From assembly GCF_053078305.1 (NCBI RefSeq), contig NZ_CP166879.1: 64,000 bases of DNA, one strand, 5' to 3'. Shown in pieces: positions 1,860 through 51,985 of the stretch (its first letter is position 1; every line of letters starts with the position of its first letter). The translations under genes were made by a program, and so were the position numbers. The notes beneath the pieces were generated by a model, which worked only from the letters and a program-made list of their open reading frames with translations, was not told the origin of the DNA and did not search any database.

Positions 1860-1947
1860 GGAAGTGTGGCCGAGCGGTTGAAGGCACCGGTCTTGAAAAC
1901 CGGCGACCCGAAAGGGTTCCAGAGTTCGAATCTCTGCGCTTCCGCCA
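1860..1947 (+). tRNA. serT: tRNA-Ser (anticodon UGA), intact; 3' 60 nt is the attL core
   Basis: GGAAGTGTGGCCGAGCGGTTGAAGG...CGCTTCCGCCA, long variable arm, anticodon loop cTTGAAAa. Confidence 0.9.
1888..1947 (+). repeat. attL core: 60-bp direct repeat, identical to 51881-51940
   Basis: Exact 60-nt match read directly in sequence; mismatch immediately upstream (1887 c vs 51880 t). Confidence 0.85.
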
Positions 1948-1953
1948 AACAAT

Positions 1954-1987
1954 CAAGGGGTTACCAAATGGTAGCCCCTTTCCTTTT
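1954..1987 (+). terminator. Rho-independent terminator after serT (prophage-side copy)
   Basis: Hairpin aggggttacc/ggtagcccct followed by T-tract. Confidence 0.6.
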
Positions 1988-2087
1988 TTTGCTCTTAGTA
2001 TACACTTGGTATACTAATTGGTATATTTAGCTCAATACACACTAGGTACATTGTTCTCTTTACGATTTATCGCTATACCGATGAATT

Positions 2088-2417
2088 ATGAATAACCCCA
2101 ATCCATGCATGACGTGTGGTGCCTGTTGTGCATTTTTCCGCGTCTCTTTTTACTGGGCAGAAGCTGACGATGCTGGCGGAAAGGTTCCGGTCAGTCTCAC
2201 TGAGCAAATATCCCCCTTTCATCGCTGTATGCGCGGCACCAGTCAGAAAAATCCCCGATGTGTCGCTCTGGCGGGAACTCCGGGTAAAAACGCATATTGC
2301 TCTGTTTACAAAAACCGTCCGTCCACGTGCCGGGAATTCGCAATGTCCGGAGAAAATGGCATCGCAAATGAAGCATGCAACCGCGCCCGGGCAAAATACG
2401 GACTTCCGGAAATCTGA
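2088..2417 (+). CDS. YkgJ-like Cys-rich protein (UPF0153, putative Fe-S or zinc binding); moron at prophage left end
   Basis: [31 protein letters not shown]... CxxCxxCC motif; opposite strand to tail genes; hairpin terminator at ~2540-2565. Confidence 0.55.
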
Positions 2418-2580
2418 AAAATCATCCATATCAACAGGATGCACGAAAAATGAGAGTTCCATCACTTCCGGAATTAACTTTTCCGTGGCACTATTTACTC
2501 GGCATAGTGTATATCTTCACAATAATGACATAATCAACGCAGTTCATGGGGGAGGTGATGGTCCCCCATCTTTTTGTCTG

Positions 2581-3252
2581 TTATTCCTGTGCCCAGCCAA
2601 CCCTGTATGCCAGGATCTCATCCGCACTGCTCAGCGATTCCAGGTCCTTCTTCATGGTGCGCTGGCGAATGTGGATTTCCATCCCTTTGGTGAACATCGC
2701 CTGCTCTGCCGCTTCACTCAGCGCAATAAGCTCTTCTGCTGTCACCGGCACATCATTGTTTTCCGCATCCGTCCAGAAAAACGCCTCCGGCAGTTTCCCC
2801 GATTTCGCTGCCGCCACCGACGGCTCAAGACGCGTCTGCGTTGACTTCCCGTAGTCCCATTTACGCCCATTGTGCTCAAACGTGTAGTTCGCCGCTTCCA
2901 TCGCATTACGCCAGGCGTTAATTTCATCGCCCTTCATCCCTCGCGCTTTCTCCGCGGTCAGCAGGTCCGTGATTTTCTCCCCGTCAAAACCCCAGCGCCC
3001 CGAGATGTCAGCTTTGCGGTTTTCTTCCGTATCCGCCACCTCCACCACACTCTGGCCCACTGGCCACAGAACTGATGCCACCCTGCTGATGCCGGTAATG
3101 ACTCCGGCACTGTTATAAACCACCTTCAGCGTCTCTGCTGAAAATAACGACTGACACTCATACCAGTCCTGACCATCCTCTGATTTCAGGTACATCGCAC
3201 CCGGCACATCCGGATTTTCCGGCGTGTATTGTCTGAAATTCTTTATGTGCAT
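2581..3252 (-). CDS. tfa: Tail fiber assembly protein (Tfa-like)
   Basis: Position immediately downstream of side tail fiber; size and composition typical of lambdoid Tfa. Confidence 0.65.
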   Translation of the reverse strand: MHIKNFRQYTPENPDVPGAMYLKSEDGQDWYECQSLFSAETLKVVYNSAGVITGISRVASVLWPVGQSVVEVADTEENRKADISGRWGFDGEKITDLLTAEKARGMKGDEINAWRNAMEAANYTFEHNGRKWDYGKSTQTRLEPSVAAAKSGKLPEAFFWTDAENNDVPVTAEELIALSEAAEQAMFTKGMEIHIRQRTMKKDLESLSSADEILAYRVGWAQE

Positions 3253-3293
3253 CTGTAAGTCCTCCCGGTTACATGTCTGAAAGATGATGCGCT

Positions 3294-5012
3294 TTATAAT
3301 GGAAAATACTCAAACCCCGAAGCTCCTGACGACACATACTCACCCACGCTGACTGTACGCCACTGAGAACCATCAAATGTCACCTGAAGCGGCCTGTAAG
3401 AAACCGATATCACACCATCTGCTCCTCTACTTTTCAGACCAGTAATCACAGCTCCTATACTCAGGCTTATTGACAGAAAACCAGAGCTCTCTTCTGCTCT
3501 GTAAGTCTGTTCATTACCCAGCCTGATACCCACAACCCGGCTCTTCCCGTCTGATGCCCCGGGCGGCCCCATCGGCCCGGTTTCTCCACGCTCACCTCTG
3601 GGACCGGGGTCGCCTTTCTCCCCTTTCGGTCCCTGCGCTCCCCGCGGACCAGCGGGGCCTGTTGCTCCCGTTTCACCTTTCGGACCCTGTGCTCCGGGGT
3701 CACCTTTCTCTCCTTTCGGACCGGGAACACCACCTCCTGCTGCAGCCTCTTCTGCCTTTGTTTTCGCTTCATTTGCCACATCCATTGCCGCCTTCACGGC
3801 CTTCGGCGTGGCTGCCTTTGTTTCGTCATTACTGCCAGTATCACTGCTTAACTGCACCACACCTTTCTGCGTCGTGCTGGCATCCCGCTGGCTGACCGTA
3901 TCCGGTTTGTTTTTTGTGCTGTAATCCACCCGCCAGTGGAAATACCGTGTGTCGCCGTAAACCGTACAGGTACAGACCGTGCCATTAATAAACCCCGTTG
4001 CACCGTATTCGCCAATGGTGACCCGGACTATGGCAGCCTCATACGTTCCCATCACCTCAATGACACAGCCACCCAGATTGAGTTTTCCCGGTCCGACATC
4101 CGTGATGACTTTATTCATTGACGCAAGCAGTGATGCCTTCATCATCCAGTAAGGCTGGTCAAATGCCCCTTTTTCTTTCAGCCAGGCAACAAACTCGCGT
4201 GTTTTCCATTCACCGGCCCCCGTATGAATGTCCCGCCCGTATACTCTGGCTGCTCCCACGGTGTTCAGAAACTTCACCTTATCCGGGATATCATCACCGT
4301 TTTTCGCTTTCTCCAGGCATCCGTCCGCTTTGTCCATTGCCGCTTTCACCGCTTTCGGCGTGGCTGCCTTCGTTTCATCATCACTGTCCGTTGCGCTGCT
4401 TAACTGCACAATTCCCTTCTGTGCCGTCGTCGCATCCGGCCCTCCCGGCTCGCCTTTTTCGCCCTTCTCTCCCCGTTCACCTTTCACACCCTGAAGCCCC
4501 TGTGGTCCTGTCTCACCACGCTCACCCTTTGGCCCCCGCTCGCCGGTATCGCCTTTTGGCCCGGGAATACCCTGCGGCCCGGTGTCCCCCTTATCCCCCT
4601 TCGGTCCCCGCGCATTCTCTGCCCGTTTCTTCGCTTCCTCTGCACTCGCCGCTGACGCTTCCGCACGTTTCAGGATTTCCGCTGCCACCGCTTCCAGCTC
4701 TGCAAGGGCTTTCGGGTAATACTGTGCGTCTTCCAGGTCCATCAGAAATTTATTCAGCGTTCCCGGTGCAGAATCCGCCTTCACCAGAATGTCACCCACA
4801 TATGACGGCGCGTACCCTTCCGTGTTCAGCGTCACCCGGTACAACCCCGGCTCAACATCCATACTGTAACTGCCGGTTTCCCCCGGCTGACCATACGCCA
4901 CCGTGGTGACAATCACCATCTCCGTTGTGCGGCGCGCTTTCAGCTCTATCGTGCATCCCGGTACTGGTTTTCCCGTACCATCCTTCAGCACACCCGATAT
5001 TCTGACTGTCAT
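3294..5012 (-). CDS. stf: Side tail fiber protein with collagen-like G-x-x repeats
   Basis: Two blocks of [13 protein letters not shown]... repeats; conserved [10 protein letters not shown] motif twice; follows J. Confidence 0.75.
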
Positions 5013-5154
5013 GGATTTCCCCCATAAAAAAACCGCAGTACCGGTTTCCCGGCCTGCGGTAAAATTTGTGGTTTGTTGGTGTTAAAACGGTGCCATCCGG
5101 CTGACCACCCTCAGCAACCGGTCGGCGGGGGATATTCTCCCCCGCCACGGTTTC

Positions 5155-5295
5155 TTACTGCTTACACTGTAAGAACGCCGCAATCTCCGCGCCCGCTATC
5201 CGGAACCGGAACTCGCACAGTGAACTGTGGGTGATCCAGATAATGAGCACTACCGTGATACAAATCACGGTGGTTTTTAACGGTTTTTGCGACAT
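5155..5295 (-). CDS. hok: Hok/Gef-family type I toxin (46 aa), not in ORF track
   Basis: Own translation: MSQKPLKTTVICITVVLIIWITHSSLCEFRFRIAGAEIAAFLQCKQ; TM helix plus LCE-R-R...AAF signature; AAGGAG RBS 9 nt upstream. Confidence 0.6.
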   Translation of the reverse strand: MSQKPLKTTVICITVVLIIWITHSSLCEFRFRIAGAEIAAFLQCKQ

Positions 5296-5493
5296 AAACG
5301 CTTGCTCCTTTTACGGAGAGGCGCTAACCTTCAATTTGCTGAAGATCGAAAGTCAGGCCTCGGGTTAAACATGAATGTTTGTCCGGGGCCTTCGTCTTTC
5401 CGGCCTTCAGGTGTTCCCTCCGGCCATCAGCCAAAGGCACCCGCGCATACTGTACGGTTTTTGTCTCCTTCCGGCAATCCCGGGGCGCGATGT

Positions 5494-8400
5494 TCAACTG
5501 ATGCCGATCCCCGCCGTGGATTTTTTCATGACCACAACCAGTAAATCACTGATGTATGTTGTCGGCGTCCAGTGGTTCACCCCGTTCGACCACACATTAA
5601 ACGTCAGGGTCACATGACCCCGTCCTGCTGGCATATCAATGACGGACGAAAACACCCGGGTGACATCCGTTGCCGGCTGATGAAAAATTACCCTTCCGTT
5701 CATCTGCACCTGTAACTGACACGTGGAATACCATGTTGAAGTGTGATCTTTGCTGGACTGGTGCTCATGTCTCGCCCCCCGGAACAGCACCGGTGGAATG
5801 ATAATCTGCCGGTCGAAGCCCTGGTCATCGTAAACCGTGACGGTTATCGTGCCACTGGCATAACTGTTATTCCGGGGAAAGGCTTTCCCCACCGTCTTCA
5901 CCAGATCGCCTTCAATCTGGTTCGCAGACAGTTTCCCTCTGATGACACAGTTCTCGTTAATGGTGACATTATTGAGCGTGCCGCTATTCGCTGTGACAGC
6001 TCCACTGATGTCCGCATTGCGGGCCGTCAGCCTGCCCTCCGGCGTCAGGGAGAACGTCGGGGGATTGCCGGACGAGGTGATGCTCACTGCAAACAGTCGC
6101 TTCAGGAACACATCGTTCATGAACAGCTGATTCCCCTGCGCCACAAACAGCGGCGTGGTGTTGCCGTTCTCCGGGTTAATCATCGCGATACGGTCCGCCT
6201 GCAGCAGAATATTGCTCAGGGGCTGGCCATCAGCATCCTCAATCCCCGCACCTATACCGGCAACATACGGAATGCCGTTTTTCGTTTTCTGCACCTTCAG
6301 CATATACAGCGCAGCCAGGTCGTTATTTGTGTCTGTCTGCACCCGCTGTATCTGCTGTATGGTGGCACTCTGGTCTTCCAGGGTTTTACTGACCGTCTGC
6401 GTGATTTCATTGCGGGTTTCGGTGATGGTGGTCTTCATCTCCGCCATCTCATCGTCAAGCTGGCTGTTATCAATCAGCTCCCACATCCCCTGTGCCAGAT
6501 GTGTCTTCCCGATTTCTCCTCTGAAAAAGTCCAGATACCCTTCCGCATCATTGCTCGCCCGGCCACTGGCTTCCACAAACGCAGATTTCCCCACCAGGTT
6601 GACGCTGCGCACATAAAACCAGAAATCCTTCCCCGGCTTGATGTGCGGGCCGGAGACGCTCCACTGGCTGCCTGTCCCCAGATAACGGGCAGAGGTTTCC
6701 ACCTGAGATGTGTCTGCGATTTTTGCCTCCGAGAACCAGAACTCAAACTGTACCGTCGGGTCATACACCGCCAGCACCGGTACTGCTGTTATCTGATAAT
6801 ACCCCGGCGTCAGCTCAATGCTGGCCGGTGCTGCAGGCGCATTAATCCGGAACGCGGTGGTGGCAGGTTCGCCCTGCTGGCCGTAGCTGTTTATCGCCCT
6901 GACCGTCAGGGTGTATTCCCCCAGAGGCAGGCCACTGAAACGGTGCTCCGTGTCGGCAGTGATGGCGGTGGTCACCAGGCGGCTGTTTTCACCGTTTCCG
7001 CTGGTCAGGCGCAGACTGAAGCGCACGCCCTTCACCACCCGCGGCGTGTCCCATTTCGCCAGCGCCAGATACTGGCCGTCTGAGGCACTCACCTCCACCG
7101 TGAGGTGCTGCACTGCCGGCGGGATAACGCTGTTCAGTGAACCGGACAGCGGCTCAAAGCGAGCCCCGTTATCCACAATGGCTTCTTTTTCCGGTACGTG
7201 CTGCACTGCCGTGATGGCAAAAGTGCCGTCCGTGTTTTCCCGGATGGAAACACAGCGGAACAGGCGACGACGCAGTGACGGCAGGGAGAGTCCCCACACA
7301 CCGTATGTCTCCACGCCATCCGGCAGGGCGCTGACCTGTATCCGGTCCGGCGCGGGGTGTGCAGTGATGTCCACGCGCACCGGCTTACCGCTGCCGTTAA
7401 TCAGGTTCACCGTCGATGTCCCTGCTTCCGGCAGTGTCACCTCACGGTCCAGCGTCAGTGTGCGGCTGGCGGCATCAATGGACAGGATGCGTCCGCCGGT
7501 CAGGGTCCCGGCATAGTCGTTATCACAGATTTCAATGATGTCACCGGGCGTATGCCGCAGCCCCTGTGACCCGAGCGTGAAATCCACCGTCTGCGTTTCC
7601 AGCAGTTCGGTCTTTATCACCCACAGTCCGGCACGGTGGGCCTGACCGCGGCTGGTACAGCCAAACGCATCCATCTTCAGCAGGTTGCGTCCGTAGCGCA
7701 GGATGGCGTCCGGGTCTTCCACCAGTTCCGTGGAGGTCTGCCAGCCGTTCTGCGGGTCGGTGTAATTCACCTCCACCGCCGTGTGCCGGTCCTTCAGGGC
7801 ACTGAAGCTGTAGCGGAACCCCACGCCGTTATCATCCACCACCACATCGCTGTTGGTGTACGGCCACACCACATCCGACGGACGGTCCTGAACGAACGTC
7901 AGCGTCTGGCCGTTCCATACCGGCATACAGCGCATCGCCGAGCAGAAATCCCCCAGGACATCCCACACCTTACGCTGCTGTGACAGGTACGCATTGAAAG
8001 TCATCCGCGGCTCTGTTCCCCCGAAACCATCCGGGACCGTCTGGTCGCAGTACTGCCCGATGGCATACAGTGCCCACTTGTCCACATCCGCGGCCCCCAG
8101 GCGTTTTCCCATGCCGTAGCGCGGGTGGGTCAGCATGTCCCACAGGCACCAGGCCGGGTTATTGCTGTATGCCGGTTTCAGACTCCCGTCCCAGATACCG
8201 CTGTAGGTGCGTTTTTCCGGGTCATAGTTTGACGGCACCTGAATGATGCGACCACGGATATGGTAGTTCACCGTCAGCTGCTGGCCACCAAACTGCTCCG
8301 CATCCACCTGCAGCCCCACAATGGCCGTGTTCGGGTAGCACTGTTTCACATCGATGATTTCGGTGTATGACGACCACAGCGTTCTGTTCTGCAGCTGGTC

Positions 8401-8970
8401 CGTGGTGCTGTCCGCCGTCTCCCTGACCATCCGGATGTTAAAGGGGCGCTCAGGGAGATTATTCAGAATCACAGACGTCAGGTACTGCGAGGTGGTCTTG
8501 CCGTTAATGGTGATATCCTTCTCCGTCACCCAGTGCCCGTTACGCTCAAGCTGAATCAGCAGGCGGACAGAAGAGGGATTACGGTCACCCTTTGAGGTGG
8601 TCTCCACCAGTGACTGCACCCCGAAGGTGACCCGCAGACGGTCAATGTTCGCTGACGTGATGGTGCGCGTCACCGGCTTTGCCTTCGTCACCTCCACGCC
8701 CAGTGCGGTTTCTGCCCCGGAGGACTCAAAGCCTTCCGGCGGTGTCTGCTCCTGCTCCCCGGCGCGCCAGACGGCGGTCACACCGTGTATCACGGGATTA
8801 CCGTCCGTGTCCGTCAGCGGGGTTTTGTTCACCAGAATACTCTGCAGTCCCTTCACCGGACCTTCCACCGGTCCCTCACCAATGGCATCAATCACGCTCA
8901 TCATCTGCGTGGATTTGAGATTGTCCTTCGCCTCACGCGGTGTGTGCCCCTTGCCGCCCCCTTTACCCAC
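5494..8970 (-). CDS. J: Tail tip / host specificity protein J; likely GTG start at 8970 (track ORF extends to 9021)
   Basis: (V)[21 protein letters not shown]... collinear with lambda J throughout; AGGAGA RBS before GTG. Confidence 0.9.
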
Positions 8971-10533: not shown

Positions 10534-10543
10534 AAACCGGGAT

Positions 10544-32000: not shown

Positions 32001-32238
32001 GAAAGCCCCTCCGGAGAGGGGCTGGAGTAGCGCTATGTACCGTTCATTACATGATGCCGGGTGCCTCCCGGTGAGTTCAGCCCGGTGCCACCGAACCCGC
32101 GTCATTCTCGCTAACGATCATCAGAGACCATTCCGTACACCAGCCGCCCCTCCGCACAGGGGGATTCATCATGCAGAAATTTTTTAACAAATTCTCAGTC
32201 GGGAAGACAACCTTCAACTGACTGAATTGTGAGCAACA
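32001..32238. repeat. Structured repeat unit 1 (~238 bp), diverged copy of unit at 32489-32723
   Basis: Shared blocks: gcccctccggagaggggc hairpin, gccgggtgcctcccggtgagttcag, cccctccgcacagggggattca-ATG, ttttaacaaa, ctgaattgtgag. Confidence 0.7.
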
Positions 32239-32488: not shown

Positions 32489-32723
32489 AAAAGCCCCTCC
32501 GGAGAGGGGCTGACGCTGCGTATCTGTATCATCATGCGCATGGTGCCGGGTGCCTCCCGGTGAGTTCAGTATCAGCACCTGAACCCGCACAGAAAGGATA
32601 AGGGATGTAACCAAACACCTGTCGCTGATATGCCCCTCCGCTCAGGGGGATTCACCATGCCAGTTTCTTTTAACAAACTCCCCGCAAATCAGACAACTGT
32701 CAACCGTCTGAATTGTGAGACAT
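32489..32723. repeat. Structured repeat unit 2 (~235 bp)
   Basis: Same block order as unit 1; hairpins preserved by compensatory changes (ccgcaca vs ccgctca loop). Confidence 0.7.
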
Positions 32724-32789: not shown

Positions 32790-33725
32790 TTAACGTATGT
32801 GCACACAACCTGAACCGGCATCAAAAAACAAACCGTGCACTGACAGAAAACGGGAAACCTCCGTCCGCTGATCATCACTCATTAAGGACCACACAAAGGC
32901 GTTATGCTCATCTTCAAGTTTCCGTCTTCTTGTTTGCCTTACAAGCAACTCAGCCGTCACCTGTACAATGTCAATGACCACCTTCTCTTCAGCAATGTAC
33001 GGCCTGTTCCAGTTCTCTGTGTTAATCTTCTCCGTCACCGGCGCTGACTTTTTGCAAGTTTCCCCATTAAACCCGACGCCATAAACAACAACATCATCGC
33101 TTTGCTTTTCGTTATCAATAATGACGAATAATACAGAAACCGATGTATCAGCGAACCCGCCTGAAATCTGAACCAACTCAACAACGCGGTTGCCAAAATA
33201 CTGACGCATTGCCAGCTCACCACGCCTGTAACCAACCCCGGGAAAGCACAAAAAAAATGAAAATCTTGCCTTCATACTCGCCAGAACATAAAACGCGTCA
33301 TCCAGAACACCGGAGGTCTTTTTATAAGGCATCATCGCTGAAATCTTCTCCCTGATATCCGCGCTCTGTGCTTTGTACTGTAGCGAAAAAGGCGGATTCA
33401 TGATGACACAATCGAACGTGTCCGTGTCACTGACATCATCTATGGCGTTGAAGAAATTTTCATTGACCGTCTTCACTGTGGCATCCGGAAAGTTATCCGG
33501 GATATGCAACAACGGAGAGGCCTGTATATCCACAGCATACAGACTTCCCACCGTGAGAAACTGCTCCAGTTGCCCGGAGCCACACGCACCATCAAAAATA
33601 CTCAGGGGCAGATCACCACAATATTCCCGCACTTTTTCAGCGACAAACCGACGCAAAGGAACGGACGTGATGTACTCTGCGTATTTTCTGGCGACTTCGC
33701 GATTATTGGATTCCTGAAAAACCAT
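32790..33725 (-). CDS. Putative N6-adenine DNA methyltransferase, gamma-class-like (motif I before NPPF)
   Basis: IFDGACGSGQL (SAM-binding) then VIMNPPF; 311 aa, too small for a separate target-recognition domain; lies at stx-equivalent locus. Confidence 0.6.
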   Translation of the reverse strand: MVFQESNNREVARKYAEYITSVPLRRFVAEKVREYCGDLPLSIFDGACGSGQLEQFLTVGSLYAVDIQASPLLHIPDNFPDATVKTVNENFFNAIDDVSDTDTFDCVIMNPPFSLQYKAQSADIREKISAMMPYKKTSGVLDDAFYVLASMKARFSFFLCFPGVGYRRGELAMRQYFGNRVVELVQISGGFADTSVSVLFVIIDNEKQSDDVVVYGVGFNGETCKKSAPVTEKINTENWNRPYIAEEKVVIDIVQVTAELLVRQTRRRKLEDEHNAFVWSLMSDDQRTEVSRFLSVHGLFFDAGSGCVHIR

Positions 33726-33810: not shown

Positions 33811-33887
33811 TGGCGCGTTGTACTGGATTCGAACCAGTGACCGATTGCTTAGAAGGCAATTGCTCTGTCCGACTGAGCTAACAACGC
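33811..33887 (-). tRNA. argO: tRNA-Arg (anticodon UCU), argO-like
   Basis: Cloverleaf folded by hand: acceptor GCGTTGT/ACAACGC, anticodon loop CTTCTAA, T-loop GGTTCGAATCC, CCA end. Confidence 0.75.
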
Positions 33888-33900
33888 ATGATGCTGATAA

Positions 33901-33977
33901 TGGACCGCCATCGGGGACTTGAACCCCGCGCAGCCAGCTTCGAAGGCTGGCGCTCTGTCCCGATGAGCTAATGGCGG
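33901..33977 (-). tRNA. argN: tRNA-Arg (anticodon UCG as read), argN-like
   Basis: Acceptor CCGCCAT/ATGGCGG, anticodon loop CTTCGAA, T-arm CGGGGTTCAAGTCCCCG. Confidence 0.65.
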
Positions 33978-33986
33978 TATGTGATA

Positions 33987-34062
33987 TGGTGGCCCTTGCT
34001 GGATTTGAACCAGCGACCTGGCGATTATGAGTCGCTCGCTCTCACCACTGAGCTAAAGGGCC
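33987..34062 (-). tRNA. ileZ: tRNA with CAU anticodon, ileX-like (tRNA-Ile2 via lysidine, or Met)
   Basis: GGCCCTTTAGCTCAGTGGTGAGAGC...CTCATAA...GGTTCAAATCC...CCA; close to E. coli ileX. Confidence 0.75.
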
Positions 34063-34102: not shown

Positions 34103-35161
34103 TCATCCGTTCTGACTGGCTAAATCCTGAACTTCCCTGACCGTCTGCTCAAAACGTTCAGTCTCCAGCTCAACGCCAGTTGCACGACGCCCCAGCGCCA
34201 TCGCGGCTTTGACTGTCGAACCCGACCCCATGAAAAAATCTGCAACCAGGTCCCCCGGACGACTGCTCGCGCTGATTATCTGCTGCAGCATTTCTGCCGG
34301 TTTTTCGCACGGATGTTTCCCGGGATAGTACTGCACCGGTTTATGCGTCCACACATCCGTGTACGGCACCTGCGCCGTCACACCGAAATACCGCCGCAGA
34401 TGCTTATATTCACTCTGCAGTTCCGCATACTGCCGGTTCAGTGAAGTATATGTCTCCAGCAGCTGGTGGTGGGGCTTTTCCAGTTCACCCCGCTGATGCT
34501 TCTCTTCTGCCACCCGGGCAAACAGCGCCTGTAATTTCAGATAATCACTTTCGTTCGGCAGCTGCCACTGACTGGCACTGAACCAGTGCGACACCATGTT
34601 TTTCTTTCCTGTGGCATCCACTATCTGTTTTGCCGTTATCCCCAGGGCAGCGCGCGCATCACGAAAGTAAGCAATCAGCGGGGCCATCACATGCTGTTTC
34701 AGTGCCCTGCCCTTCGCCTCATACCCGGCATCTTTCGGACGATACGGCCCCTGATAATGTTCCGCGAACAGAATGCGCTCTGTGGCGGGGAAATACGCCC
34801 GCAGGCTTTCCTTGTTGCACCCGTTCCAGCGTCCGGACGGCTTTGCCCAGATGATATGGTTCAGCACACTGAAGCGTTCACGCATCATGATTTCAATGTC
34901 AGACGCCAGGCGATGACCACAGAACAGGTAAAGACTTCCGGCAGGTTTCAGCACCCGCCAGAACTGCGCCAGACACTGGTCCAGCCACTTCAGGTAATCA
35001 TCGTCGCCCTTCCACTGGTTATCCCAGCCCTCGGGCTTCACTTTAAAGTATGGCGGGTCTGTGACTATCAGATCGACAGAGTTTTCCGGTAAGGTCTGGA
35101 TAAATTCCAGGCAATCAGCGTTGATTAACTCACAACTGGATATTTTTACAGTATTAAGCAT
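34103..35161 (-). CDS. DNA methyltransferase, beta-class (DPPY ... FxGxG), 352 aa
   Basis: DLIVTDPPYF near N-terminus; DFFMGSGSTV near C-terminus. Confidence 0.75.
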   Translation of the reverse strand: MLNTVKISSCELINADCLEFIQTLPENSVDLIVTDPPYFKVKPEGWDNQWKGDDDYLKWLDQCLAQFWRVLKPAGSLYLFCGHRLASDIEIMMRERFSVLNHIIWAKPSGRWNGCNKESLRAYFPATERILFAEHYQGPYRPKDAGYEAKGRALKQHVMAPLIAYFRDARAALGITAKQIVDATGKKNMVSHWFSASQWQLPNESDYLKLQALFARVAEEKHQRGELEKPHHQLLETYTSLNRQYAELQSEYKHLRRYFGVTAQVPYTDVWTHKPVQYYPGKHPCEKPAEMLQQIISASSRPGDLVADFFMGSGSTVKAAMALGRRATGVELETERFEQTVREVQDLASQNG

Positions 35162-39856: not shown

Positions 39857-40201
39857 TCACTCTCCTTCTATGCGAATACCAGCAACAGTCAGTGCGGCAT
39901 TGACCTCATCAGCGTAGTAGTACGTTAATCCACTTGATGATTTAGCCAGCTTGAATGGTTCTGGTAACTTCACTATGCGGGACTCCTGCTCGTCGATACG
40001 CTGTTTTGCTTCCTCCAGTTCATCCAGCAAATCAGCGATAATATCCACTTCACGATGACGGATTTCACACTTAAACGCAGCCAAAGCTGCATCACAATCC
40101 TGCTCAGCGTTTGGACTGTCTGGTTTCTCCTGATACCACGCCAGCATCGACCGATAGTTTTGTGCTGCCTCACGCAATGCCTGATAGTCAATCTTGCTCA
40201 C
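39857..40201 (-). CDS. Ead/Ea22-like protein, short paralog; GTG start
   Basis: (V)SKIDYQALREAA...; AGGAGGCAACCA-GTG initiation region identical to the downstream paralog. Confidence 0.5.
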   Translation of the reverse strand: MSKIDYQALREAAQNYRSMLAWYQEKPDSPNAEQDCDAALAAFKCEIRHREVDIIADLLDELEEAKQRIDEQESRIVKLPEPFKLAKSSSGLTYYYADEVNAALTVAGIRIEGE

Positions 40202-40848
40202 TGGTTGCCTCCTTTGCGAAGCTGGGCAGCAAAGTCAACTAACCACTCAGTCATTTCAACCTTCCCTATCAGGTCTGAACCAGGGTGCATACAGCAATCA
40301 CTCTGCGCCGCTTTGAAATCCTTATACTCATATTCTTGGGCCACCAGATTTTTTGCAGCTTCTATAGCAGCATCCACCCCCAGCGCCCGCACTTCAGACA
40401 GGAAAGCATCGGTGGCTGGCATATTTCCTGTTGCCTTCATGGCCTCCAAAATAACCAGAACGCCATCTCTCCCAACCTCCTCGCAGATAACCTCGGTGTT
40501 GTCGCCAACAACATCGCAGAATGCCTGAACTGCTTTACGAGCAAGTGCATTCTCCGCCGCCAGCGCCACAAGATTAGCTTCCAGCTCGGCAATACGTTTG
40601 CTTTGGGCTTCCCGTTCATCCAGCAGTGCCTGTACTACTTCAGGGTTGAAAGCTGCAATAAATTCTGCGTTGTTCTCTGCATTTTTCTGGTCATCAAAGC
40701 CAGGCCATTTGATAATGTCTCCGCAACGTTCATCCCCCGGCGTATGCACCGCATATGTATCAGTGCCCGGCGAAATGAATGCGACCCATTCGCCCTGGGT
40801 TGCCAGTTTTGCTATCTCACGTAGCGTCTGATAATTAATTTTTCTCAC
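40198..40848 (-). CDS. Ead/Ea22-like protein; GTG start at 40848
   Basis: (V)RKINYQTLREIAKLATQGEW...; AGGAGG RBS 6 nt before GTG; coiled-coil middle. Confidence 0.5.
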   Translation of the reverse strand: MRKINYQTLREIAKLATQGEWVAFISPGTDTYAVHTPGDERCGDIIKWPGFDDQKNAENNAEFIAAFNPEVVQALLDEREAQSKRIAELEANLVALAAENALARKAVQAFCDVVGDNTEVICEEVGRDGVLVILEAMKATGNMPATDAFLSEVRALGVDAAIEAAKNLVAQEYEYKDFKAAQSDCCMHPGSDLIGKVEMTEWLVDFAAQLRKGGNQ

Positions 40849-41140
40849 TGGTTGCCTCCTGGAAAATAACCGCATGTCCCAGTTTCTCCGCCAGTGCCAG
40901 TTCTGCCTTAGCGCCTGCCGACCGCTGCCAGCCTTTCAGCATATAAACCGCATCCACACAACGAATCATTGCCATGCAAATATCCATGTACTGCGGCTGA
41001 GTCAGCCCGTCCGGAAGTACTGCCGGGTTTAAAACGGTATGCCCTTCCCGTTTCAGTGCTTCTTCCGCCCTGTGAAATGCCTCGCGGTTGAAATTTTCAT
41101 ATCCCGTCATTGGACCGGCGATATAAATGCTCACCCTCAC
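40835..41140 (-). CDS. DUF4406-like (nucleoside 2-deoxyribosyltransferase-like fold) protein
   Basis: MRVSIYIAGPMTGYENFNREAFHRAEEALKREGHTVLNPA... Confidence 0.5.
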   Translation of the reverse strand: MRVSIYIAGPMTGYENFNREAFHRAEEALKREGHTVLNPAVLPDGLTQPQYMDICMAMIRCVDAVYMLKGWQRSAGAKAELALAEKLGHAVIFQEATSEKN

Positions 41141-43710: not shown

Positions 43711-43796
43711 AATTGCCTCATCTTGTGACGAACCATCCTCTGGTGATATTCTGTGATTCCCCAATCAACAGAATCAGCAGGGGGCTGGCATAAATA

Positions 43797-45010: not shown

Positions 45011-45056
45011 TGCATTCCTTTTCTGGAACGAGCATCAGGCAAATGACTAGCAGATT

Positions 45057-45416
45057 TTATAATCCAACCAGGCTTTCCAGGGGGATACCAAATTGATTAT
45101 GAAGACGGCGAATCATTGGTAACGTAAGGCTTCTGGTACCATTCAACACCTCATAAACCCGATTTTTTTTCCCAATTGCGGGTTCCAAATCTTTCACAGT
45201 CAGCCCCTGCTGTTCCATGCGAAATCTTATAGCTTCAATTGGGGATGGTGGCTCAATGGGATAATGTTTTTTTTCATATTCCTCTATTAGCAAACACATC
45301 ACCTCAAAAAAATCCCCCTCAGGCGTGTCAATTTCGGGCTCATTGTCGAACATGGGTTCAACAGCACGCAACGCGGCTTCATAATCTTGCTCTGTACGAA
45401 TAGGTTTGATGTTCAT
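45057..45416 (-). CDS. higA: HigA-like antitoxin (C-terminal HTH)
   Basis: ...GLTVKDLEPAIGKKNRVYEVLNGTRSLTLPMIRRLHNQFGIPLESL...; downstream of and adjacent to toxin. Confidence 0.65.
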   Translation of the reverse strand: MNIKPIRTEQDYEAALRAVEPMFDNEPEIDTPEGDFFEVMCLLIEEYEKKHYPIEPPSPIEAIRFRMEQQGLTVKDLEPAIGKKNRVYEVLNGTRSLTLPMIRRLHNQFGIPLESLVGL

Positions 45417-45418
45417 GC

Positions 45419-45721
45419 TTACTCCAGTTCGATGGTATCAGCATCAATAGCATCGTATTCCTTGTGGTTTCCGATGAATTTAACAAATACCCATCCTCGC
45501 TGATACGCAATTGCAACAATTAAACGGTAATGATTACCTTTTATGTTGAATACCACGCGCCGGTTTTTCAATATACTGGCCGTTCGGTATTGTGCCTTAA
45601 TGTCTGCTGGGCTTTTCCAGTCAGCTTTTGCCGCCTCATCCACCCATGCCCTTAGCGGTTGTTCTGCATCAGGATTCTCCGCCCAAAAATCCCTGAGTGT
45701 TTTAACTGAGATAATCTTCAT
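45419..45721 (-). CDS. higB: HigB-like toxin (RelE/ParE fold); start trimmed to ATG at 45721
   Basis: MKIISVKTLRDFWAENPDAEQ...NIKGNHYRLIVAIAYQRGWVFVKFIGNHKEYD... Confidence 0.65.
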   Translation of the reverse strand: MKIISVKTLRDFWAENPDAEQPLRAWVDEAAKADWKSPADIKAQYRTASILKNRRVVFNIKGNHYRLIVAIAYQRGWVFVKFIGNHKEYDAIDADTIELE

Positions 45722-45995
45722 AACTGTATAGTAGTCCCATTTTGGGACTGATGCAACAGCTCGCAATTACAAATTTAATAATAAACATGTTGACCAGTTA
45801 AATTTTAATTTGTAAATTGTATCCATAAACCCACCCCGCCCCACAGAACGCAGGGCAATACTTCGAGTTACCCGGCAGTGGTCAGGGGTTAAGTAGCCAG
45901 CCTGAGGCGTATGAACATGACGGCGGGGATTACGTTTAACTATGCAGCAGGTTTTTTGTTCCGCTACCCCGGCGTTAAGGGGAAATGAGGTCAAC

Positions 45996-46148
45996 ATGGA
46001 TACGCTCAATCTTGGCAACAACGAATCTCTGGTATGCGGTGTGTTCCCTAACCAGGACGGCACGTTTACCGCGATGACGTATACCAAAAGTAAAAAGTTT
46101 AAAACCGAAGCTGGCGCGCGTCGCTGGTTAGCCAGAAACACTAACTGA
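45996..46148 (+). CDS. ydfA: YdfA/YdaF-like small protein (DUF1391)
   Basis: MDTLNLGNNESLVCGVFPNQDGTFTAMTYTKSKKFKTEAGARRWL...; GAGG RBS. Confidence 0.6.
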   Translation: MDTLNLGNNESLVCGVFPNQDGTFTAMTYTKSKKFKTEAGARRWLARNTN

Positions 46149-46412
46149 TTAGCACCAGTAAAAACAGGTTGCCACTGGTTAATTTACCCTGAAAAGTCAG
46201 GGCACAACAGAAAGCACACGGCGAAGGCGTCTTTTCCTTAGAAGGCTTGTCGTTAGATTTCTTCGACCGTGTGCTTCCGGTTGTGGCAATCCGCGAAATG
46301 GCGCGGCGGTAAATATGGCTGGGGGTTTTTATTTCTTTTCCCCTCATTGAGGACACCGGGTTGTCAGGTTGACCATATGCCTGAGTGACAACCCCGCCAC
46401 AACATCTCCATG

Positions 46413-46475
46413 TTTCAATGGCAGTGGTACCTTTGGCGGCATCAGTTTATTAGCTTTCTGATGTCCGCCCTTTTT
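46413..46475 (+). ncRNA. dicF: DicF-like sRNA (ftsZ translation inhibitor homolog)
   Basis: tttggcggcatcagttta...ctgatgtccgccc + T-tract; downstream aaagtgaattttgtgatg..gtgaatgcggct.agcgcacgcggaac recalled as matching the Qin dicF region. Confidence 0.5.
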
Positions 46476-46933
46476 AAAGTGAATTTTGTGATGCGGTGAA
46501 TGCGGCTAAGCGCACGCGGAACAGTTAAAACCGTAAAGTGGTCTTTTACGGGGCGTAACGGGCATACTTCTGTATTCCGGCGTTAATTGTTAACTGGTTA
46601 ACGTCACCTGGAGGCACCAGGCACTGCATCGACAAAGTTCACTTCGGTGATGAAAGGTAAGAGAAAATGTTGAATGTAGCTATTGAAAACCAGAACGGGT
46701 GGAATTATAGTGCACCTGCACCTCATAAAGCGGGTGCCGGGATTGCTACCCCGATGTTCATCATGGCGCATAACCGCGCTCAGGCGTTTTTTTTATGCGT
46801 AATGCACAGCCACATTCAGATTATGGTGGGGCGTGCAGGGCAGCCGCAAGGCTGGCCGGGTTCCATGATGACCGGTTGTAGCAACCCTGTGCGTCTCACC
46901 ACCCATGAGATTGCTACCTCCGGTGGTGAGTTA

Positions 46934-47518
46934 ATGAAATTCATCATGGAGGCTGCCATCATGGCTACTATCCCTGCCCTTTCTCACCCTGAAATTACTA
47001 TCGCCAATGGGCGTGCTGTTACATCCTCTTTAGCTGTTGCCGAGTATTTCCGGAAACCACACAAAGATGTACTGGCAAAAATTTCACGTCTAGACTGTTC
47101 AGCAGAATTCACTGAGCGAAATTTTTCGCCCAGTGAATATACCGACTCAACCGGGCGCAAACTCCCTATGTACCAAATCACCAAAAACGGCTTCGTTTTC
47201 CTGGTGATGGGCTTCACCGGCAAAAAAGCCGCTGCATTTAAAGAAGCCTACATCGCTGAGTTCGATCGCATGGAGAAAGAACTGCGCCAGAATAACGCCC
47301 CGTCTCCCGACAAAATGATTCACGGGGACGGACGTACCCTGGTTATCCGTCTCGACGAACACGGCAATATCAAATTCACTGAAACCGTTCCTGATGGTGC
47401 AATGGTCTGCACCCTGGATACCTTCCAGTTTTATCTGGAGAAACAAGGCTGGACTCTTGTAAACCGGAGCGCAATTAAAAATATGACTGTGGAGCAATTA
47501 CTAAAAATTCATTGTTGA
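46934..47518 (+). CDS. rha: Rha-family phage regulatory protein (start uncertain: 46934 or 46961)
   Basis: ...ITIANGRAVTSSLAVAEYFRKPHKDVLAKISRL...PMYQITKNGFVFLVMGFTGKKAAAFKEAYI... Rha domain. Confidence 0.65.
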   Translation: MKFIMEAAIMATIPALSHPEITIANGRAVTSSLAVAEYFRKPHKDVLAKISRLDCSAEFTERNFSPSEYTDSTGRKLPMYQITKNGFVFLVMGFTGKKAAAFKEAYIAEFDRMEKELRQNNAPSPDKMIHGDGRTLVIRLDEHGNIKFTETVPDGAMVCTLDTFQFYLEKQGWTLVNRSAIKNMTVEQLLKIHC

Positions 47519-47528
47519 GGACGCGATA

Positions 47529-47717
47529 ATGGAAACGTTATTACCAAACGTTAATACGTCTGAAGGGTGTTTTGATATTGGTATTCTGCTCAGTAACCGG
47601 GAGTTTACTGAAGATGCCATTAAGATGAGAAAATATGAGCCTTATCTTCTCAATGATAATTCCATACTCTCCAGAATTGCCCTTCTTAAACTTGGTATTT
47701 TCGGAGGGCAGCAGTGA
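47529..47717 (+). CDS. dicB: DicB-like cell-division inhibitor
   Basis: METLLPNVNTSEGCFDIGILLSNREFTEDAIKMRK... matches DicB N-terminus. Confidence 0.7.
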   Translation: METLLPNVNTSEGCFDIGILLSNREFTEDAIKMRKYEPYLLNDNSILSRIALLKLGIFGGQQ

Positions 47718-47902
47718 CTTCTGCATTTGCACTGGTGATGACGGTTTTTCTTATAACGGGTGAGCCACAGAATGTGATTACCGGAATTTATGCCAGTAAA
47801 GAATCATGCCTCCGTGCAAGAGACGAGCAAAAAATTTCTGGCGAATGCCTCCCGTTAAAAAAAGTATCGCTGTACCTGAATAACGAAATACCGGCTGGAT
47901 AA
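47714..47902 (+). CDS. ydfD: YdfD-like small membrane (lysis) protein; GTG start
   Basis: (M)TSAFALVMTVFLITGEP...EQKISGECLPLKKV...NEIPAG resembles Qin YdfD. Confidence 0.6.
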   Translation: MTSAFALVMTVFLITGEPQNVITGIYASKESCLRARDEQKISGECLPLKKVSLYLNNEIPAG

Positions 47903-47994
47903 TCCACCAGCCATATTAACGCCATACCCGTTGATTAAGCATGCCAGCAATGGCAGGGGTTCGTACAACCTTAAAATAGTTATGAGGTTTATCC

Positions 47995-50433
47995 ATGAGC
48001 ACTGATAAAGAAGAATTTTCGCTATATTGCGAAGCAAAAAATGACAAGGTCAGAAAACGCCTTGGGATTAAAGGAGGTTTTTACTGGACTACAGCAAAAA
48101 AATTATCTGTTGCCATCTCACGGTGCGTTGTTGCAATGGACGAGGCAGGCTACGACGCTGATGATTTCAAAAAACCTGTCCGCGTCCATTTCCCCGTTGT
48201 GAATGACCTTCCACCGGAAGGCGTGTTTGATACCGAATTCTGCAACCGCTATGAAAAAGGCGGGGAAGATGGCATCACAATGATATTTATAGCGCCTTCC
48301 CCCTCAGTTCAGGACAAACCAGCCAGCACTGACAATACCAACGTCAATGGCGAAGACATGGCTGAGATTGAGGATAATATGCTCCTGCCGATTTCCGGTC
48401 AGGAACTGCCCATTCGCTGGCTTGCGCAACATGGCAGCGAAAAACCGGTAACGCACGTTTCACGGGAAGAACTTCAGGCATTACATATCGCACGAGCTGA
48501 AGAACTGCCGGCTGTTACTGCCCTGGCTATTTCCCACAACACAAAGCTGCTCGACCCGCTGGAGATTCGCGACCTTCATAAACTGGTACGCGACACAGAC
48601 AAAGTTTTCCCTAATCCCGTTAATTCCAGTCTGGGGTTAATGACTGCTTTTTTCGAAGCATACCTGGACGCTGACTATACCGATCGAGGTCTGCTGACAA
48701 AAGAGTGGATGAAAGGAAATCGTGTTTCTCGCATCACCCGCACGGCTTCCGGTGCAAATGCCGGTGGCGGAAATAAAACCGATCGTAATCCTGACTTAGT
48801 ACACACCCTCGATACTCTGGATGTGGAGGCTGCAGCAGCCACACTTCCGATGGATTTTAATATTTATGAAATACCCGTGAGCGTTTATCGTCGCGCAAAA
48901 GAAATCGTCCTGAAAAAAGAAAGTCCGTTCAGGGAATGGTCCGCAGCACTTCGCGCAACCCCTGGTATCCTGGACTATTCCCGCGCAGCTATTTTTGCAC
49001 TTATCCGGAGCGCCCACCCTGAGTTTTATCACTACCCGGGACGCCTTCAGGGGTATATCAATGCCAACCTGACAGAAACTGATCACGAGAATCCCACAGC
49101 TGAAACGCTCATGGCTGCCCGGCATACACCGGAAAAAGATATCCTGGAAGAAATTAACGGCGGACTGGCTGCTGAGTGCAAAACAGAAGAAGAAAAAAAT
49201 GATGAAGAAAACCCGCAACCATCTGGCGCAATGGCAGATGAACAGGCAACGGCTGAAACAATGGCAGCGGATACAGTTGAACATCATCAGGACCCGCAGC
49301 CGCTGGATGACAAGTCACAGGTAAAAGTTACTGCTGAAGAAGTAAATAAAATTATGGAGGCAGCAGACATCAGTCGACCAGATGCCGACAAATTGCTTGC
49401 CGCTTCTCGTGGTGAGTTTGTTGAAGGGATTAGCGACCCGAATGATTCGAAATGGGTTAAGGGGATTGAAACCTGCGATTCTGTGAACCAGAACCAGCAA
49501 GAAACGGAACAGAACGGTCAGAAAGCGGAACAAAACAGCCCAAATGCGTTACAAAACGAGCCAGAAACGAAACAACCTGAACCAGTAGTGCAACAGGAAG
49601 AGGAAAAAGTTTGTACCGCATGCAATCAGACTGGTGGTGGTAACTGCCCTGATTGTGGCGCAGTGATGGGGGACGCAACCTACCAGGAGACATTCAACGA
49701 AGAAAGCCAGGATGAAGCCCGGGAAAAAGATCCGGAGGAAATGGAAAGTGCCGGACTCCCGAACAAGGAGTGCACCGAAGGCGATCAACATGCCAATGGC
49801 AATAATGAAACAGGCGAGACAGCAAATCCCTTAATTAAGGTGAACGGTCATCGTGAAATCACATCCACCAGCAGGTTATGGCACCATCTGATGATTGACC
49901 TTGAAACAATGGGCAAAAATCCTGACGCACCAATAGCCTCAATAGGCGCTGTATTTTTCGATCCACAAACCGGAGAGCAGGGGCCTGAATTCAGCAAAAT
50001 AATTGATATGGGTACATGTGGCGGCACTGTAGACATAAGCACCATCGAATGGTGGCTTCAACGCTCTGGCGAAGCCCGTGCCGCCATTTTAGCTGATCGA
50101 ATACCGCTTGATGATGCGCTTTTACAATTACGGGAATTTATAGACGAAAACTCCGGTGAGTTTTTTGTTCAGGTCTGGGGAAATGGAGCCAACTTCGACA
50201 ACGTGATTTTACGCCGTTCATATGAACGGCAGGAGATCCCCTGCCCGTGGCGTTACACCAATGATCGTGATGTAAGAACGATTGTTGCCCTGGGGCTGGT
50301 GATGGATTTCGATGCTCGAAGTGTCATCACATTTGAGGGTGAACGCCATAATGCCCTGCACGATGCGCGTTACCAGGCAAAATACGTTTCAGCTATCTGG
50401 CAAAAACTGTTCCCGAATCAGGCTGATTTTTAA
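47995..50433 (+). CDS. Large early-left protein: RecE-like N-terminal region + acidic linker + Cys4 zinc ribbon + C-terminal DEDDh 3'-5' exonuclease domain
   Basis: C-terminus MIDLETMG ... WGNGANFDN ... [10 protein letters not shown] (Exo I-III motifs); [16 protein letters not shown]; N-terminal blocks recalled as RecE-like. Confidence 0.6.
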
Positions 50434-50499
50434 TGTTCAACCCATATCGCCGCCCACAAGCTATAGTGGCGGCGGTCATGCTGTAAGGCACGTGACCAC

Positions 50500-50751
50500 A
50501 TGTACGAATTAACTCTATCGCCAGCAGAAATTCAAGAGATCACGAGATACGAACGGTATACAAAACAGCAACAACAGTTAAGGTTGCACGGTATCCCATT
50601 TGTACCCGGTCCTAAAAACGAACCAATAGTTCTTCGCAGTGATGTCCCGCGCGGACTGACTGCGATACCGAAAGTATCTGAACTGGTTTCTGCTGACCCC
50701 GATTTTGAGGCGCTGAACAATGGGAAGACCAAGAAAAAACAAAAAAGATAA
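50500..50751 (+). CDS. xis: Putative excisionase
   Basis: Small basic protein immediately upstream of and overlapping int. Confidence 0.5.
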   Translation: MYELTLSPAEIQEITRYERYTKQQQQLRLHGIPFVPGPKNEPIVLRSDVPRGLTAIPKVSELVSADPDFEALNNGKTKKKQKR

Positions 50752-51739
50752 TGCACTACCGCCACGTGTTAGATCGAATGGTTACAGTTACGTATGGAAA
50801 CCCGAAGGAAGCACAAAAACTATAGGGCTAGGAAGAGTGCGGGAAACCAGCATAGCTAAAGTCTGGCAGAATTATGAACTGGAAAAAGCAAAACGCCACA
50901 ACATAATGACCGTCGCTAAATTATGGCACATGTTTATGGATTCCCCCGCATTTACAGAACTGGCCCCCAGAACCCAAAAAGATTATCGGCAACATCAGAG
51001 GGCGTTACTGGCAGTCTTCGGAAAAGTACTGGCTGATAATGTAAAAATTGAGCAGGTAAGAATTTTCATGGATAAACGGGGGATTGAGAGCAAGACCCAG
51101 GCAAACCATGAACTGGCAAGTCTCAGTCGTGTATACGGGTGGGGATATGAGCGTGGATATGTGAAGAATAACCCATGCAAAGGAGTCAGGAAATTTACGC
51201 TTAAAGCCCGCACTGTTTACATCACAGATGAACAGTATGCGGCGATATATGCGGAAGCAATACCACAGTTACGCATTGCAATGGAGATATCCTATCTTTG
51301 TGCGGCAAGACTCGGTGATGTGCTCGAGCTGAAATGGCAGGATATTATGGATAAAGGAATCTACATTGAGCAAAACAAGACCGGCACCAAACAAATCAAG
51401 GAATGGTCTCCACGATTACGAACCGCGATCCAGTTAGCCAGAAATGTATCTTCAGGCACATGTGAATATGTGATCAACACAACCAAGGGCGGGAAGGTCA
51501 TAGCTAAAACGCTAAACAACTGGTGGAACCAGGCTAAACACGCAGCCGAGAAAAAATCCGGCGTCCCGTTTGGGTGCAATTTCCATGACATAAAAGCCAA
51601 AGGAATATCAGATTACGAAGGAAGCAGTCGCGACAAACAGATTTTCAGTGGACATAAAACAGAAAATCAGGTGTTGATTTATGATCGTAAAACAAAAATC
51701 ACGCCGACACTGGATTTGCCACTTGTGGTCAGCAAGTAG
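50720..51739 (+). CDS. int: Tyrosine integrase
   Basis: 339 aa; catalytic R (AARLGDV), H-x-x-K and terminal HKTENQVLIYDRK (Tyr) motifs; adjacent to attR. Confidence 0.85.
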   Translation: MGRPRKNKKDNALPPRVRSNGYSYVWKPEGSTKTIGLGRVRETSIAKVWQNYELEKAKRHNIMTVAKLWHMFMDSPAFTELAPRTQKDYRQHQRALLAVFGKVLADNVKIEQVRIFMDKRGIESKTQANHELASLSRVYGWGYERGYVKNNPCKGVRKFTLKARTVYITDEQYAAIYAEAIPQLRIAMEISYLCAARLGDVLELKWQDIMDKGIYIEQNKTGTKQIKEWSPRLRTAIQLARNVSSGTCEYVINTTKGGKVIAKTLNNWWNQAKHAAEKKSGVPFGCNFHDIKAKGISDYEGSSRDKQIFSGHKTENQVLIYDRKTKITPTLDLPLVVSK

Positions 51740-51880
51740 GCAACTCAGGAAATTTTCTGGCAAAAAAGACTTGGTATACTAACTCTGAAAGCTCCCTAAC
51801 AGCCTGATTTTTCTAGGTGTTAAGTTTGGTTAATTTTTCAGCTATTTTTCGTATTGCATTGATTTTTATTTATTTTTCAT

Positions 51881-51940
51881 CGGTCTTGAAAACCGGCGAC
51901 CCGAAAGGGTTCCAGAGTTCGAATCTCTGCGCTTCCGCCA
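51881..51940 (+). repeat. attR core: 60-bp direct repeat (displaced serT 3' fragment)
   Basis: Identical to 1888-1947. Confidence 0.85.
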
Positions 51941-51946
51941 GATAAG

Positions 51947-51985
51947 ATAAGGGGTTAGCTAAATGCTAACCCCTTTTTCTTTTGC
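51947..51985 (+). terminator. Rho-independent terminator (likely the original serT terminator)
   Basis: aggggttagc-taaat-gctaacccct perfect hairpin + T-tract. Confidence 0.6.

Follow-up and report, generated by a model that had tools for sequence, protein, structure and literature searches.

How a phage can insert itself into a transfer RNA (tRNA) gene, leave that gene intact, and still bring along the sites at which its integrase acts is the question raised by the serT locus in a 64,000-nucleotide stretch of Escherichia coli DNA (contig NZ_CP166879.1 of assembly GCF_053078305.1; hereafter the window), where a lambdoid prophage lies between serT and yccA. An initial annotation of this DNA had placed the prophage ends at two 60-bp repeats in and after serT, and had proposed that a short motif common to both prophage arms is bound by the integrase. 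We consider it highly likely that the window holds a single serT/yccA lambdoid prophage with a lambda-type integrase, arm-type sites of sequence TTGGTATA, sites of the integration host factor (IHF) type and a crossover in the anticodon loop. The insertion site and the core were already published for the Sp4/Evi family of phages, and the boundaries add nothing new; what is new is a map of the phage attachment site (attP) at the nucleotide level, with four arm-type and three IHF-type predicted sites and a probable anticodon-loop crossover.

Prophage ends in serT

The ends are marked by an exact 60-bp direct repeat at 1888-1947 and 51881-51940, seen by eye, in a scripted check and in a repeat search; the search extends it to 68 bp at 96% and finds no other long-range direct repeat in the window. 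The left copy (the attL identity block, + strand) starts at base two of the anticodon stem and extends as far as the CCA end of serT, which ARAGORN calls as an intact tRNA-Ser(UGA) at 1860-1947 (+), as does the tRNA-Ser annotation of relatives, and its 3' 60 nt are a phage-derived copy. The serT promoter, a sigma-70-like TTTACA-17-TATAGT at 1819-1847 (+), is host DNA unaltered by the insertion. The right copy (the attR identity block, +) is the displaced, promoterless 3' fragment of serT; it is not called as a tRNA by ARAGORN, which finds no second serine tRNA in the window.

Each repeat is followed on the + strand by an intrinsic terminator, and the two terminators are alike, not identical. 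At attL (1955-1990) a hairpin at 1955-1980 with an 11-bp stem precedes TCCTTTTTTT and folds at -18.8 kcal/mol (z = -4.0); at attR (51949-51985) a hairpin at 51949-51975, also with an 11-bp stem, precedes TTTCTTTT and folds at -21.6 kcal/mol (z = -5.9). The view that the first is supplied by the phage and the second is the original host terminator of serT was borne out on both counts, since the attL hairpin recurs in the attP of phage Evi and the attR hairpin directly follows serT in genomes with an empty site. The tRNA gene has thus been preserved at attL together with a terminator, as proposed. The phage terminator reads GGGGTTACC-AAAT-GGTAGCCCC, and at a set of attR-type junctions (L086-L094) serT is followed by GGGGTTACC-GAAA-GGTAACCCC, to which the phage terminator is nearer than to the E. 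coli one. The sequence after serT at these junctions is presumably the host serT terminator of another enterobacterium, and the serT copy in attP was, to judge by this resemblance, probably captured from another host.

The initial annotation had called for a comparison with a prophage-free serT-yccA junction. We joined window positions 1500-1947 to 51941-52500 and searched complete E. coli genomes (n = 5426) with the product. The reconstructed 1007-bp junction, which includes the serT promoter, is 100% identical to that of E. coli XH990, and it is unbroken in 4657 of the 5426 genomes, annotated there as tRNA-Ser and yccA. The occupied arrangement of int, attR and yccA occurs in 744 E. coli genomes at 91-99.5% identity, O157:H7 strains included.

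The predicted attP exists uninterrupted in phage Evi (LR597642), which carries in a row int, a P arm, the 60-bp core, the attL-type terminator and three copies of TTGGTATA. The same order of int, P arm, core and P' arm is found on the IMG/VR contigs L073 (also labelled L132) and L118, as well as on L028 (also labelled L085), whose length of 84.7 kb suggests two prophages in tandem. Most IMG/VR integrase matches are prophage calls that end 3 bases past the int stop codon, with no att arms.

Excision at the same core has been described for Sp4, the yccA prophage of O157 Sakai (PMC10925052): the Sp4 circle was amplified by polymerase chain reaction (PCR) after mitomycin C and its attP sequenced, giving the same serT core at the left junction, the circle and the right junction (PMC2669165, Fig. 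S5). The window core equals these published L, P and R sequences, allowing for machine-reading gaps in the supplement. Since this core was sequenced from the excised Sp4 circle, the serT boundaries were already known; a search for literature joining serT, yccA and a prophage found none. Together, the XH990 junction, the Evi attP and the Sp4 circle support the boundaries at serT.

Integrase and candidate excisionase

The int gene (50720-51739, +) encodes 339 amino acids with an arm-binding N-terminal domain, a core-binding domain and a catalytic domain. Pfam family PF00589 spans residues 168-323, and the equivalents of lambda R212, K235, H308, H333 and Y342 are conserved. From residue 1 onwards the protein can be aligned with lambda Int (1z1b, E 3.6e-19); 1kjk, an entry for the N-terminal domain by itself, gives E 0.018. 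An AlphaFold model made with 88 relatives has a predicted local distance difference test score (pLDDT) of 96.6, and its N-terminus contains strands at residues 17-19, 23-26 and 35-39 and a helix at 45-60, with pLDDT above 89. The top Foldseek matches of the model are full-length lambda Int, with ~350 aligned columns and a template modelling (TM) score of 0.70. Because alignment, N-terminal model and structural matches agree, we take the window integrase to be a heterobivalent, arm-binding enzyme.

The position of the second catalytic arginine of lambda Int, Arg311, is occupied by a lysine in the motif FHDIKAKG (residues ~288-295). All 10 serT-phage relatives share the lysine, and an alignment of 118 sequences, made up of lambda Int, the window integrase and 116 relatives, shows it in 90. 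The pattern HD[IL]KAK marks a large natural integrase subfamily, and two natural integrases with the same change have been mentioned (PMC12884075).

The end of a small gene at 50500-50751 (+) overlaps the start of int. Its product belongs to the DUF4224 family (PF13986, E 2e-10) and matches PHROG 1266, 'excisionase' (E 1e-19), which makes it a candidate excisionase or directionality factor.

Arm-type motifs in both arms

The initial annotation had noted one motif in both prophage arms, in tandem at attL. We found the 14-mer ACTTGGTATACTAA on the + strand at 2004-2017 and 51769-51782 and nowhere else in the window, even when two mismatches were allowed. Chance occurrence was rejected, as 0.15 copies were expected and the position of the motif is kept across lineages. 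The presence in both arms therefore stands; the tandem at attL does not hold for the 14-mer, the repeat unit being its 8-bp core TTGGTATA and the copies three, not two. The P' arm carries TTAGTATA at 1995-2002, TTGGTATA at 2006-2013 and TTGGTATA at 2018-2025 (P'1 to P'3; 1995-2025, +), spaced by 11 and 12 bp. In the P arm, P1 (51769-51782, +) has its TTGGTATA core at 51771-51778, 110 bp before the identity block. Five copies of TTGGTATA occur in the window on both strands, three of them in the att arms. The homology that the window shares with other occupied E. coli strains does not reach beyond 2028, three bases past the third copy.

Between the int stop codon and P1, at 51745-51760, lies the near-palindrome TCAGGAAATTTTCTGG, which in Evi is the perfect 16-bp palindrome CCAGAAAATTTTCTGG; as a terminator it was rejected, for the hairpin folds no better than shuffled sequence (z = -0.8). 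Literature on arm-type sites of enterobacterial tRNA-Ser phages was searched for and none was found.

A scan of IMG/VR with the 3' end of serT gave 49 loci from many serT-element lineages, which were aligned without gaps on the core. They contain 22 P-arm types with less than 75% ungapped identity to each other, a count in which some types differ by a 1-nt shift only. In 21 of the 22 the motif NNRGWAHA (H = A, C or T) lies 110-112 bp upstream of the core, and the remaining type comes close with GGGGAATT. A copy in inverted orientation stands at -47 in 16 of the 22 types and is missing in L103, in L123 and in the window lineage, where no such P2-type copy is visible in the region 51820-51850; TTTGGTTAAT at 51825-51834 was considered for this role and rejected, as it matches 6/8 core positions and neither Evi nor L085 conserves it. 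Most phage-type P' arms carry copies at +48, +59 and +71-75 past the tRNA end, after the terminator, and a few carry one or two. The DNA between these conserved islands has diverged almost completely. In L086, L097, L105 and L112 a LexA-box-like TACTGT-N8-ACAGT, which the window lacks, stands ~190 bp before the core, outside the P arm, and suggests an SOS-controlled gene beside attP in those lineages.

The sequence of the motif varies by lineage, being TTGGTATA, TTAGAATA, GAAGAATA or TTAGAAAATA, and both arms agree in the four pairs verified: the window, Evi, L122 with L123 (GTTAGAAAATA in both arms) and L109 with L110. Outside its N-terminal domain the window integrase is closest to AGAATA-type enzymes (75%); residues 1-62, by contrast, are closest to GGTATA-type enzymes (66% versus 48-56%). 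The N-terminal domain follows the motif type, and the sequence comparison suggests, as a hypothesis, that arm-site specificity can change across lineages while the core stays fixed. The reading of the motifs as integrase arm-type sites, already proposed in the initial annotation, is strengthened both by the comparison of lineages and by the lambda-type N-terminal domain.

The window int adjoins the single-site P arm and is transcribed codirectionally with serT. Where relatives have integrases of 54-72% identity (L090, L110, L111, L112 and L122), int adjoins the three-copy P' arm and converges on serT. Since int adjoins opposite arms, these close relatives carry the att cassette in opposite orientations with respect to int. 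Two further integrase relatives (L077 and L078, 76-78% identity) were uninformative for the site, as they are not beside serT and lack TTGGTATA.

Predicted IHF-type sites and probable crossover

Between the arm sites and the core we predict three IHF sites. The H'-like site AATCAAGGGGTTA (1951-1963, +) is the sole perfect match to the consensus WATCAANNNNTTR in the 64-kb window and overlaps the stem of the phage terminator; the host version of the terminator, AGATAAGGGGTTA, differs from it at exactly those bases and has no IHF consensus. In the P arm, the H1-like site AATCAGGCTGTTA (51797-51809, -) and the H2-like site AATCAATGCAATA (51852-51864, -), which adjoins the core, have one mismatch each. 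They coincide with the family-conserved islands at -84..-72 (TAAnnnnTTGATTT) and -29..-17, both of which match the reverse complement of the consensus, YAANNNNTTGATW, across lineages. Sites with at most one mismatch number three in the 344-bp attP, against 0.19 expected.

The 60-bp identity block begins within the anticodon stem (1887-1891 and 1899-1903), which encloses the loop at 1892-1898. Within it we infer a true core (C-O-C') at 1888-1902 (+; 51881-51895 at attR), in which CGGT and ACCG stem arms surround the 7-nt loop CTTGAAA; this is the layout, inverted repeat plus overlap, of a tyrosine-recombinase core. Across all serT-phage lineages, tRNA identity begins inside one 4-nt stretch of the 5' anticodon stem, and its right limit is invariably the CCA end. 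Williams is said to have defined in 2002 an anticodon-loop class of tRNA-targeting integrases, and the window shows the features of that class: identity from the anticodon stem-loop to the tRNA 3' end, serT restored at attL and a fragment at attR. By this analogy, strand exchange probably takes place in the anticodon loop, at 1892-1898, as in the principle stated in the Islander paper (PMC4383910), and the remaining ~45 bp of the block would serve only to rebuild serT.

Put together, these elements outline a mechanism. A lambda-type tyrosine integrase, the product of 50720-51739, would have inserted the prophage into serT from an attP that includes the serT sequence between anticodon stem and CCA end, together with a terminator of its own. 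Because attP brings the 3' part and a terminator, attL contains a rebuilt, intact and terminated serT, and the displaced 3' fragment and the host terminator remain at attR. Strand exchange would most likely fall in the anticodon loop of 7 nt, enclosed by the inverted stem arms at the left edge of the 60-bp block. The N-terminal domain of the integrase would bind the TTGGTATA copies at P1 and at P'1-P'3, and IHF at H1, H2 and H' would fold the arms towards the core in the manner of the lambda intasome. The DUF4224 gene that overlaps int is the candidate for the excisionase.

Alternative explanations

Several observations weigh against this scheme. The integrase has a lysine where the canonical second catalytic arginine (lambda R311) belongs. 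The window lineage is without the inverted -47 copy of 16/22 P-arm types. The IHF consensus is degenerate, and H' is missing in some relatives, such as L050. The assignment of the motifs to the integrase draws on position, covariation and analogy with lambda, and the covariation comes from a small sample of seven integrases and four verified arm pairs. At the attP-like junctions L084, L092, L096 and L108, motif types are mixed between the P and P' arms. The Sp4 excisionase was judged probably non-functional; Sp4 circles were seen only after mitomycin C, during co-amplification of Sp4 by Sp5 regional replication (Asadulghani et al. 2009, PMC2669165). Finally, a sigma-70-like promoter match with an extended -10 at 1999-2027 overlaps the tandem copies.

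Some of these points have an answer. We take the lysine as a variant, not as grounds for exclusion, because Evi exists, Sp4 excises and 744 genomes are occupied. The mixed junctions L084, L092, L096 and L108 are probably tandem-prophage or prophage-remnant junctions, in which a prophage lies beside a neighbouring element or remnant, because most of them have no int beside the P' arm. One may speculate that the absent P2-type site, the inverted cassette and the doubtful Sp4 excisionase are connected.

The promoter match could mean that the tandem TTGGTATA cluster is mainly a promoter of the ykgJ-like gene at 2088-2417, and that the copy near attR is coincidental or unrelated. The match (TATACA-17-TATATT with an extended -10 TG, 1999-2027, +) lies 60 bp upstream of the ykgJ-like open reading frame (ORF). 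Against this, the cluster keeps its position despite other DNA downstream (Evi has an espV fragment there, L028 and L073 have unrelated DNA) and even beside a convergent int (L110, L111, L112 and L122); the opposite arm has its fixed copy at -110 in 21/22 P-arm types, and the motif tracks the integrase N-terminal domain. We therefore think a mainly promoter function improbable, and a secondary promoter role may belong to the tandem copies.

Lambda Xis, too, binds tandem direct repeats, and a candidate directionality factor is encoded beside int, so that the TTGGTATA repeats might instead be bound by another phage protein, such as the DUF4224 excisionase-like protein. The motif is however present in both arms, with a lambda-like split of one plus three, whereas lambda Xis-type sites are in one arm only. 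The prophage moreover encodes a full lambda-type integrase with an arm-binding domain, and the sequence of that domain follows the motif type independently of the remaining protein. It is accordingly quite unlikely that a protein other than the integrase is the main ligand.

A third alternative, in which the repeats enclose several elements in tandem or a composite, or else a degraded island with its true ends elsewhere, is barely credible: tandem prophages are known at serT, with up to four junction matches in some E. coli genomes and the 84.7-kb IMG/VR contig with its internal attP-like junction, but the window has two core copies only, one integrase and one ordered lambdoid module set of 49.9 kb, and deleting exactly 1948-51940 from the sequence restores the empty site at 100% identity.

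Prophage body and cargo

The single prophage left standing by this comparison has a body of 49,933 bp (1948-51880), bounded beyond attR by the host gene yccA (52147-52806, +). From attL onwards, the window order is ykgJ-like cargo, tail fibres, J, tape measure, major head, protease, portal and large terminase; then lysis, two DNA methyltransferases with three tRNAs, replication, helix-turn-helix (HTH) regulators and Rha; and last an ExoVIII-type exonuclease, the xis-like DUF4224 gene and int. The ORFs for the large terminase subunit, portal, head and tail look intact. No second integrase and no third copy of the serT core were found within 1948-51880. This segment is a single and complete lambdoid prophage that belongs to the serT/yccA family of E. 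coli (Sp4, phage Evi), with the same attB, the same core and an integrase 96-98% identical to those of Evi and Sp4-type contigs.

The cargo gene at 2088-2417, of the YkgJ family (CxxCxxCC), stands at the extreme end of the prophage, by attL. The only other tRNAs that ARAGORN calls in the window form a cluster, Arg(UCU), Arg(UCG) and Met(CAU), at 33811-34062 (-), between the DNA methyltransferase ORFs 32790-33725 and 34103-35161, in the region where Shiga toxin (Stx) phages carry their toxin genes. The Arg-Arg-Met cluster resembles the region upstream of stx; an Stx phage was nevertheless rejected, since the downstream ORFs encode DNA methyltransferases, not toxin subunits, and stx is not present in the window. 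Two small neighbouring ORFs at 45057-45766 (-) correspond to a HigB-family toxin and an HTH antitoxin, as annotated in FHI_NMBU_10, the closest relative prophage. Three short local direct repeats lie at 3781-3888 and 4333-4440 within the tail-fibre gene (fibre and collagen repeats), at 40160-40213 and 40807-40860 in neighbouring ead/Ea22-like genes (after the annotation of the closest relative), and at 32050-32080 and 32539-32569, an intergenic pair below the methyltransferase.

Discussion

About one in seven complete E. coli genomes (~14%) carries a prophage of the window's integrase family at serT, O157 and other Shiga-toxin-producing strains among them. For these, the attP map gives exact primers and oligonucleotides for excision PCR, electrophoretic mobility shift assays and minimal-attP integration vectors, and with it annotation pipelines can fix the limits of serT prophages precisely and detect junctions of tandem or hybrid type. 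The map of arm and IHF sites and the family-wide scaffold appear to be undescribed before, yet their design appears to be the classical one of lambda.

Sp4 is the closest published case. It occupies the same site, with the same serT core at both junctions and in the circle, has a size of ~49.8 kb and a lambdoid layout, and the Sp4-type integrase is ~96% identical to that of the window at the protein level (contig L132, in which the 3' end of int includes the Sp4 attP primer as published). In O157 strains the int-attR-yccA DNA is 91-92% identical to the window. Unlike Sp4, which was reported defective with an insertion sequence in nu1 (PMC2669165), the window prophage has ORFs that look intact, and it differs in its cargo of a ykgJ-like gene, methyltransferases and three tRNAs. 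The Sp4 paper defines the core and describes no arm-type or IHF sites (PMC2669165). Phage Evi, whose integrase protein is 97.6% identical, has GACTTGGTATATTAAC in its P arm, then the 60-bp core followed by the phage terminator, and TTGGTATA in three perfect copies; it differs in its 40-kb genome and in an annotated espV fragment after P'3, and its att region is unannotated.

Other tRNA-targeting elements of the anticodon-loop type share the general plan, with an identity block that opens in the anticodon stem and closes at the 3' end, a restored gene, and a displaced fragment at the far end of the element; the window prophage is assigned to this sublocation class by analogy.

With lambda the window shares the three-domain fold of Int, arm motifs distinct from the core, three tandem P' copies about one helical turn apart, predicted IHF-consensus sites on both sides, between arm sites and core, and transcription of int towards att. 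Lambda has the sites P1, P2, P'1-P'3 and H1, H2, H'; the window has P1, P'1-P'3 and predicted H1-, H2- and H'-like sites, with no visible P2-type site, and its arm motif is TTGGTATA, not the lambda arm consensus. Its target is a tRNA gene and not the gal-bio intergenic attB, and its identity block is 60 bp long, compared with 15 bp in lambda. The P' arm is ~50 bp longer than that of lambda because it includes the tRNA 3' half and the terminator. The lambda int gene adjoins P', that of the window the single-site arm; a lysine replaces Arg311, and the putative excisionase is a DUF4224 protein.

These comparisons lead to a broader reading that we offer tentatively and hold to be possible rather than probable. 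Many lineages of enterobacterial phages might compete for a single attB, the anticodon loop of serT, share an attP scaffold fixed to the nucleotide (the -110 site, the -47 site, two IHF sites, core, terminator and the +48/+59/+72 sites) and have diversified the arm code (GGTATA, AGAATA, AGAAAATA) together with the N-terminal domain, so that their intasomes would be mutually orthogonal. If true, tandem lysogens and hybrid serT junctions would be stable and no phage could excise another, and a change of arm sites over a fixed core would be relevant to the engineering of orthogonal integrases. The window lineage, with no P2-type site, an inverted cassette and a lysine for Arg311, would then be a further variant, which could mean a modified excision pathway. 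Lambda and HK022 share their arm sites and differ in the core; the arm-code diversity of the serT phages would, on the same condition, be the mirror image of that pair.

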